From Yuukianura sp. NJ FZ-2021 (lineage: Eukaryota): a DNA stretch of 64,000 bases. The position numbers were made by a program, and so were the translations under genes. The stretch spans positions 5,022,001 through 5,086,000 of the forward strand of contig CM102290.1 in the NCBI GenBank assembly GCA_046563655.1, given 5' to 3'. How positions within the stretch are numbered: position 1 is the first letter of the stretch; the number at the start of each line of letters is the position of its first letter. Below are positions 62,301 through 62,562 of the stretch, piece by piece. The notes beneath the pieces are model-generated. The model saw only the letters and a program-made list of their open reading frames with translations, was not told where the DNA came from and ran no database searches.

Positions 62301-62562
62301 CTGGTGCCGGACGTCTCAACTTGACGGACACACCACAGTTGTAGAGCTGGCAAAACACCCGAAACGGAGGTGATAGAAGAAGGGTGGCCCATGTCAATCC
62401 ATATTTCTCCGGGTACACGTATGTCTTGAACTGGCTAAAGTACAAACGACCTAATTCCGGAATATCATACCCGTCTGGTGCCCGCTTTTGCAGCAATGAC
62501 CGGATGTTGTTGATGACGTAGTCCGGGATTTCTTCGTTCCCGGGATGTTGAGTACGAAGCAT
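59340..62562 (-). CDS. CMTR1: CMTR1-like cap-specific mRNA 2'-O-methyltransferase (FtsJ/RrmJ fold plus degenerate guanylyltransferase-like region), divergent paralog with a putative N-terminal LOTUS domain; about 863 aa
   Basis: Exons 60980-62562, 60654-60868, 60254-60556, 60022-60175, 59779-59940 and 59340-59514 join in frame (2592 nt). CMTR1 hallmarks: [109 protein letters not shown]. The first in-frame ATG is at 62562, with an in-frame TAA upstream. Confidence 0.87.

Follow-up and report, generated by a model that had tools for sequence, protein, structure and literature searches.

A CMTR1-derived gene, probably of springtails, that joins a LOTUS-like domain to a methyltransferase fold lacking catalytic residues

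Introduction

CMTR1 (hMTr1/FTSJD2) is the animal cap1 2'-O-ribose methyltransferase. Two of its modules serve for docking: the G-patch of canonical CMTR1 docks to DHX15, and the WW domain docks to the CTD of Pol II. The locus described here is on the minus strand of a stretch of 64,000 nucleotides (the window, by which we mean the whole stretch of DNA that was analyzed) and encodes a CMTR1-type protein with an unusual N terminus. It therefore raises three questions, namely what the N-terminal domain is, whether the methyltransferase to which it is joined can still be an enzyme, and what such a protein might do. An initial annotation, made from the sequence of the window, proposed that a LOTUS (OST-HTH) domain had replaced the G-patch in a CMTR1 duplicate, and that the protein had been rewired from nuclear co-transcriptional capping to germ granules by exchanging a module for one helicase, DHX15, for a module for another, Vasa. 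In this study, we undertook computational analyses of the gene, its relatives and its N-terminal domain that bear on this proposal.

Results

Structure of the Gene and Domain Order of Its Product

The LOTUS-like and methyltransferase domains are both held by one uninterrupted minus-strand open reading frame (60976..62625, 549 aa from stop to stop), and the exon that carries them (62562–60980) is open throughout, as the initial annotation had described. The first ATG of this frame is at 62562, from which translation to the in-frame stop (60976–62562) yields 528 aa starting with MLRTQHPGNE. Upstream of that ATG the sequence is purine-rich, then AT-rich, and contains no longer open frame, so the protein is likely to begin with the LOTUS-like domain. 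The stop codon after residue 528 overlaps a GTAAGC splice donor that starts at 60979, and exon placement guided by the fragment P0072 resulted in a gene model of six exons (Table 1), whose five introns (111, 97, 78, 81 and 264 nt) are all GT..AG.

Table 1. Coordinates of the CMTR1-like gene and its parts in the window, with the evidence for each.
Feature	Position	Strand	Evidence or content
Whole coding region	59340..62562	-	Six exons, 2592 nt, 863 aa plus a single terminal stop
Exon 1 (1583 nt; aa 1–527 plus two bases)	60980..62562	-	LOTUS-like domain, linker and CMTR1-type methyltransferase domain
LOTUS-like (OST-HTH-like) domain, aa 10–84	62311..62535	-	Sub-threshold Pfam OST-HTH match, Atlas features, orthologs P0076 and L001 616–822
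Ser/Pro/acidic linker, aa 85–168, without G-patch	62059..62310	-	Composition, Pfam
CMTR1-type RFM/FtsJ domain, aa 169–527, degenerate active site	60980..62058	-	Human CMTR1 4n48_A, E 3.4e-75
Codon 378, AGT (Ser), at position of human CMTR1 Asp364	61429..61431	-	Alignment to human CMTR1
Codon 419, CGC (Arg), at position of human CMTR1 Lys404	61306..61308	-	Alignment to human CMTR1; P0072 likewise R
Exon 2	60654..60868	-	Gene model guided by P0072
Exon 3, guanylyltransferase-like region	60254..60556	-	Gene model guided by P0072
Exon 4, guanylyltransferase-like region	60022..60175	-	Gene model guided by P0072
Exon 5	59779..59940	-	Gene model guided by P0072
Exon 6, stop TGA 59342–59340, without WW domain	59340..59514	-	Gene model; no Pfam family at E ≤ 1

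The 863-aa product is colinear with P0072 (aa 409–862 versus 1–452) and, by blastp, with the tick CMTR1 P0014 (aa 167–798 versus 226–839 of 924) and, likewise to aa 798, with P0021 (181–788 of 864). It is by this colinearity with P0014 and P0021 that a guanylyltransferase-like region is recognized after the methyltransferase domain. The WW domains of the same two proteins are at 839–867 (P0014) and 783–811 (P0021), and the alignments of the window protein end where those domains start. No Pfam family was found in exons 2 to 6 at E ≤ 1, in a scan for which exons 3 and 4 were read through as a single frame. Based on the alignment endpoints and the lack of a Pfam family in the C-terminal exons, we judged that the guanylyltransferase-like region has been kept and that the WW domain is absent, a comparison that has to be read in light of PF00397 being precomputed in only eight of the 74 CMTR1 homologs.

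Between the two domains of exon 1 is a linker of 84 residues (aa 85–168) that includes 16 Ser, 9 Pro, 8 Glu and 5 Asp and is poorly conserved in the two relatives of the N-terminal domain, P0076 and L001, that are described below. The G-patch family PF01585 is present in 65 of the 74 homologs (at aa 161–203 in P0014), but was not listed by Pfam at E ≤ 10 for the translation of the 528-aa open reading frame. The linker composition and the missing G-patch are as they had been read in the initial annotation.

The N-Terminal Domain Resembles the LOTUS Family

The N-terminal peptide from which a LOTUS domain was originally proposed was recovered exactly, at residues 11–73, within an interval (62310–62535) that corresponds to aa 10–84. 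OST-HTH is the sole Pfam family listed for aa 1–80, although the match (E 0.0072, 16.6 bits) is below the gathering score of 23.8. It aligns aa 19–55 with profile positions 8–44, covering 37 of 71, and becomes weaker with longer queries (E 0.015 for aa 1–109 and 0.087 for the whole protein). A comparison of ESM-Atlas features, which is unrelated to the Pfam method, led to the same family. For aa 1–90 the top hit was an arthropod OST-HTH cluster, with a score of 0.92 that is to be read against shuffled proteins reaching 0.9 in 4 to 10 of 100 cases, and with 194 of 256 features shared, which is within the range reported by the tool for true family members; half of the hits (15 of 30) were in the OST-HTH family set. 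When residues 21–95 of P0076 were compared in the same manner, OST-HTH clusters took ranks 1–3 (0.90, 0.86 and 0.85), the first with 174 of 256 features. No Pfam family was found for P0076 or for the L001 piece when each was searched alone.

Structure prediction contributed little. The AlphaFold models of aa 1–100 (2-row alignment, pLDDT 52.4) and aa 9–86 (3-row alignment, pLDDT 53.0) are both mostly helical and of low confidence, as just 2 to 3 sequences were at hand. With the low-pLDDT model, Foldseek found no match in the PDB at E ≤ 0.001 (the best, at E 6.2, was to a non-LOTUS entry), and the best match of a wide VIA search (Z 4.2) was to generic helical domains and likewise not to a LOTUS entry. 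Since the models were poor, these fold searches were uninformative. A phmmer search of aa 1–80 against PDB sequences returned only designed helical repeat proteins and no LOTUS chain, and the 3-row profile had zero hits in the PDB. We regard the matches to designed proteins as spurious.

Because two unrelated methods, Pfam and Atlas features, converge on one family, we consider it likely that the N-terminal domain is a LOTUS domain. Thus, the proposed LOTUS identity stood in so far as OST-HTH is the only Pfam family matched and has the nearest Atlas clusters, and fell short in that the Pfam match (E 0.0072) is below the cut-off.

LOTUS domains occur in two types. Vasa is bound by extended (eLOTUS) domains and requires their conserved C-terminal alpha5 extension, which is their most conserved surface; minimal (mLOTUS) domains have no such extension and do not bind Vasa, and G-rich or G4 RNA is bound by both types (PMC5458760 and PMC7498356, both in excerpt). 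Past aa 84, the window protein continues with a Pro-rich stretch in which no residues other than P85 and P87 are common to all three orthologs (the window protein, P0076 and L001). The low-confidence AlphaFold model has no helix of note after aa 84, which by itself is weak evidence since the extension of the Oskar eLOTUS domain is disordered until Vasa binds (PMC5458760, in excerpt). It is the lack of conservation in the Pro-rich residues after the domain that favors the minimal type, and suggests that the domain is mLOTUS rather than the Vasa-binding form. The link to Vasa made in the initial annotation is therefore not borne out, as a Pro-rich, non-conserved stretch is present where the alpha5 extension would be needed.

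Like the mLOTUS domains of MARF1 and the extra LOTUS domains of TDRD5/7, which bind G-rich or G4 RNA and not Vasa (PMC7498356, in excerpt), the window domain has ~75 aa, no conserved C-terminal extension and a weak OST-HTH match. It differs from those proteins in its partner, which is a CMTR1 fold and not NYN/RRM or Tudor domains, as well as in its Pfam score below the cut-off. With the eLOTUS domains of Oskar, Tejas/TDRD5 and Tapas/TDRD7 it has in common the N-terminal position and, if it is LOTUS, the domain family, whereas the conserved alpha5 extension by which those domains bind Vasa (PMC5458760, in excerpt) has variable Pro-rich residues as its counterpart.

Relatives of the Domain and of the Fusion

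A full HMMER scan of 1.84 billion representatives identified a single significant relative of the N-terminal domain, P0076 (E 5.6e-8), a fragment whose residues 21–95 are 43% identical to the window domain and which is without helix alpha1. P0076 was also the only protein found by a profile search of proteins of 40–216 aa, and a word-index search of aa 1–110 among proteins of 290–924 aa had no match at E ≤ 10 in 204 candidates. The second relative is on a metagenome contig, L001, where it adjoins the start of the same methyltransferase: on one strand, the LOTUS-like piece (616–822) is followed by exons of the linker and then by the beginning of the methyltransferase extension (1362–1541, 68% identical). 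With these two relatives, and with only synonymous differences seen inside it, the domain is unlikely to be a chance feature of the sequence. Judged by this order of parts, the fusion is conserved in a second organism. An exon for helix alpha1 was not identified in a reading of the L001 frames.

The two loci differ in their introns. The window has one first exon of 1583 nt (60980–62562), whereas the orthologous interval of L001 (616–1541) is split by at least four introns, located before the GFDI motif, in the linker, and before and after the methyltransferase extension. The contrast implies either intron loss in the lineage of the window or intron gain in the other.

The OST-HTH family PF12872 was found in none of the 74 CMTR1 homologs. 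In the literature searched, no paper mentioned both CMTR1 and a LOTUS domain, no fusion of OST-HTH with a methyltransferase was evident by title, and a search for CMTR1 as a pseudoenzyme matched only a tRNA review. The initial annotation knew of no described LOTUS-CMTR1 fusion.

Loss of Catalytic and Contact Residues

That the methyltransferase is of the CMTR1 type, as originally annotated, is evident from its match to the human CMTR1 chain 4n48_A (aa 169–526, E 3.4e-75) and from the Pfam FtsJ match at aa 252–463 (E 3.4e-16). The latter has a score of 60.1 bits, compared to 122–130 bits for the canonical P0014 and P0021. The active site of human CMTR1 consists of K239, D364 and K404 (PMC3941023, in excerpt), and alanine at any one of the K-D-K residues abolishes the activity of hMTr1 (PMC3113572, in excerpt). 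Human K239, D364, K404 and E441 correspond to K255, S378, R419 and E456 in the window protein, so that the tetrad K-D-K-E reads K-S-R-E. At the codons for S378 and R419, no difference is listed for X1 (depth about 200) or X5, two DNA runs that cover both sites.

In a MAFFT alignment of the window protein (the query) with all 74 homologs (75 rows), 71 rows have D at the position of D364, where two rows have a gap and the remaining two have S (the query) and Q (Allacma P0002). The K404 column has K in 72 rows, R in two (the query and P0072) and Q in one, and at R436 there are 72 rows with R and three with L, which are those of the query, Allacma and P0072. Substitutions extend to the non-catalytic contacts with cap and RNA (residue list from PMC3941023, in excerpt), of which three of ten are kept (K203, R218 and E373) and seven are changed (D207K, N234H, R235G, N374D, Q376K, R436L and, at 439, N to S). 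In SAM motif I, by alignment to human CMTR1, the Asp and GPGG are retained.

The extent of divergence was also evident across the 104 columns that are invariant (≥95%) in the 71 canonical rows. Of those that are filled, 62 of 89 are kept in the query, 59 of 93 in Allacma and 23 of 36 in P0072, compared with 90–97% (87/92 up to 100/104) in seven control rows, which include long-branch rows such as that of the protist Naegleria.

From these substitutions we infer that the methyltransferase no longer methylates caps. SAM binding and some unusual chemistry may persist, because the exchange of Lys for Arg at 419 is conservative and motif I, with its GPGG, is kept.

Retention of the RFM fold without the K-D-K triad is known from the C-terminal RFM domain of CMTR2 and from fungal relatives that lack the triad, and the dead RFM domain of hMTr2 is needed for the function of that enzyme, which is a precedent for non-catalytic roles (PMC3113572, in excerpt). 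Those dead domains differ from that of the window protein in not being derived from CMTR1 and in having no LOTUS domain; moreover, the dead domain of the window protein is its only RFM domain.

Phylogeny, a Shared Pocket and Selection

The best match of the gene is P0002 of Allacma fusca (47% identity over 410 aa), which consists of FtsJ only and is from a 3.2-kb contig. Orthologs in other organisms are 45–68% identical and include one spliced fragment. An IQ-TREE 'quick' tree was constructed from 52 of the 75 rows, chosen as named species plus unnamed representatives, with 23 rows left out. That tree unites the query with Allacma and P0072 in a clade (SH-aLRT 100), the stem of which has a length of 1.69 changes per site. 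The clade falls inside the arthropods next to pancrustaceans, a placement whose support of 82 is weak and which came with long-branch warnings from the tool. Judged by the match to Allacma, the lineage of the gene is probably springtails.

One other sequence branches beside the clade. P0074 (321 aa, from Logan) is a very divergent CMTR1-like fragment with an end branch of 4.99 that keeps K-D-K and has its own changes in the cap pocket (Y at 203, E at 207, K at 218, K at 373 and Y at 374). Long-branch attraction may account for its position in the tree.

Members of the clade share changes in the pocket: L at R436 and S at 439 are found in three of three, and D at 374, K at 376 and a basic residue at 207 in two of two. 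The catalytic tetrad, in contrast, differs within the clade, being K-S-R-E in the query and R-Q-K-D in Allacma, while P0072, which covers two of the positions, has R/E there. The sharing of pocket residues together with variation at the catalytic positions fits a pocket that has been remodelled and conserved without catalysis.

Several lines of evidence bear on whether the gene is maintained. Contigs of the runs X1, X5 and X6 show 15 coding differences from the window, every one of them synonymous, where 21% of possible single changes would be expected to be so, which indicates that the protein is under strong purifying selection. There were 24 non-coding differences in 1609 bases over the same stretch. 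Two of the nucleotide differences are in the LOTUS-like domain, at codons 24 and 37, and both are synonymous. The 453-aa frame of the fragment P0072 continues without a break across the sites of all five introns, as would be expected of a spliced transcript of an ortholog. The two contigs of X6, the only run from an RNA library, match 61792–62060 (3 differences) and 62118–62368 (0 differences), and may represent DNA carry-over. None was placed on 62384–62562 or on exons 2–6 and no splice joints appeared, an absence to which we attach no weight.

Discussion

The gene in the window has an intact architecture of an unusual kind, has lost catalytic and contact residues of CMTR1, shares its remodelling with relatives and is under strong purifying selection. 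The explanation that we favor, and consider reasonably probable from comparison of these sequences, is that it is a lineage-restricted, CMTR1-derived gene whose product acts as a non-catalytic RNA-binding or adaptor protein by means of its LOTUS-like domain and its former cap pocket. From its N terminus, the protein consists of a LOTUS-like domain that is most likely minimal and RNA-binding, the Ser/Pro/acidic linker, the methyltransferase fold of CMTR1 and a guanylyltransferase-like region. The methyltransferase fold has lost its catalytic Asp and Lys and most of its contacts to the RNA backbone. With both the G-patch, the docking site for DHX15, and the WW domain missing, the protein would be uncoupled from co-transcriptional capping. 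It would have stopped methylating caps and taken on a role in which the LOTUS-like domain and a cap pocket that is remodelled, and not merely decayed, engage RNA or an RNP partner.

Other readings of the locus have to be weighed against this one, among them that the gene remains an enzyme. The initial annotation proposed an active CMTR1 duplicate that had moved to germ granules, where its LOTUS domain would bind and stimulate Vasa in place of the G-patch and DHX15. Such a protein would be expected to have a LOTUS-like domain in place of the canonical G-patch and to keep motif I of the SAM site, as is the case here, and it would agree with animal LOTUS proteins being mostly germline and with eLOTUS domains binding Vasa (PMC5458760 and PMC7498356, in excerpt). 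We nevertheless regard it as highly improbable, as the catalytic Asp and Lys have been replaced by Ser and Arg (PMC3941023 and PMC3113572, in excerpt), two of the three RNA-holding arginines are lost (PMC3941023, in excerpt) and the domain is not followed by a conserved C-terminal extension. What survives of the rewiring by module exchange is the presence of the LOTUS-like domain and the disappearance of the G-patch, while S378, R419 and the missing WW domain speak against a working enzyme. It is also quite improbable that the gene is a fast-evolving sole CMTR1 ortholog that still makes cap1 with an unusual active site, even though it could be the sole CMTR1-like gene of these animals. No second Allacma CMTR1 was found among the 74 hits, which is weak evidence given that candidates were obtained by shared words and the assembly is fragmentary; in addition, the clade is within arthropods near pancrustaceans (support 82) and selection is strongly purifying. 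A conserved alternative active site, however, would not be expected to differ among the members of the clade at its catalytic positions, and every K-D-K residue is essential in hMTr1 (PMC3113572, in excerpt).

The loss of catalytic residues and the long branch might be those of a decaying pseudogene or an annotation artefact. We rejected this reading, whose probability is practically negligible, since an unbroken frame of 863 aa runs through all six exons, whose splice sites are canonical, all 15 coding differences are synonymous and orthologs of 45–68% identity, one of them a spliced fragment, exist elsewhere. A further question is whether the N-terminal domain is LOTUS at all, or an unrelated, lineage-specific small helical domain for which the Pfam and Atlas signals arose by chance or convergence. 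That would be in keeping with a Pfam score of 16.6 bits against a cut-off of 23.8, with two AlphaFold models that are mostly helical at low confidence, with the best Foldseek (E 6.2) and VIA (Z 4.2) matches both being to other entries than LOTUS, and with the absence of LOTUS chains from the PDB sequence and profile searches, as well as with the frequency at which shuffled proteins reach 0.9 in the Atlas (4–10 of 100). We consider it unlikely because two different methods chose the same family out of about 25,000, the 43%-identical P0076 independently gave OST-HTH clusters at ranks 1–3, and the 194 features shared with the first Atlas hit are in the range of true members; the fold searches count neither way.

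The non-catalytic RNA-binding or adaptor protein that we favor can be taken a step further, to a more specific proposal that is distinctly unlikely as it stands. The gene might encode a new springtail 'reader' of RNA 5' ends or caps: a copy of CMTR1 that has lost catalysis and both of its nuclear docking modules, in which the cap pocket has become a conserved new binding site and the LOTUS domain would target the protein to germline or other RNP granules, where it would mark or sequester a class of RNA.

Set beside CMTR1 itself, the window protein shares the homologous RFM/FtsJ domain, including the extension N-terminal to it, and a colinear guanylyltransferase-like region, and it keeps GPGG and the equivalents of K203, R218, K239, E373 and E441. 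It differs in having neither G-patch nor WW domain, in Ser for D364, Arg for K404 and changes at seven of ten contacts, and in its LOTUS-like N terminus and the very long stem of its branch. CMTR1 has been treated as uniform and catalytically conserved, and the active-site Asp is indeed present in all 71 rows filled at that position other than those of the query and Allacma. If our explanation is correct, the gene represents a natural case in which an RNA-modifying 'writer' became a binding protein, and the LOTUS family, which in animals has a central part in germ granules, would gain a partner domain. The window protein is a concrete test case for a CMTR1 fold without methyl transfer, within the scope of one arthropod lineage.

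Other Features of the Window

Just downstream of the CMTR1-like gene, on the plus strand, are open frames with repeated CxxCxGxG-like cysteine motifs (57467–58228); two of these frames were tested, neither of which matched a Pfam family at E ≤ 0.001. At 37666–38263, a 35-nt unit is repeated in tandem (17.1 copies, 93% matches), and the long open frames to which this array gives rise on either strand are probably not genes. A perfect 19-nt tandem repeat of 3.8 copies (63929–64000) is cut by the window's end. The minus strand at ~41879–45330 carries integrin alpha exons, with Pfam matches to Integrin_A_Ig_3 (E 4.2e-24) and FG-GAP (E 1.7e-15).
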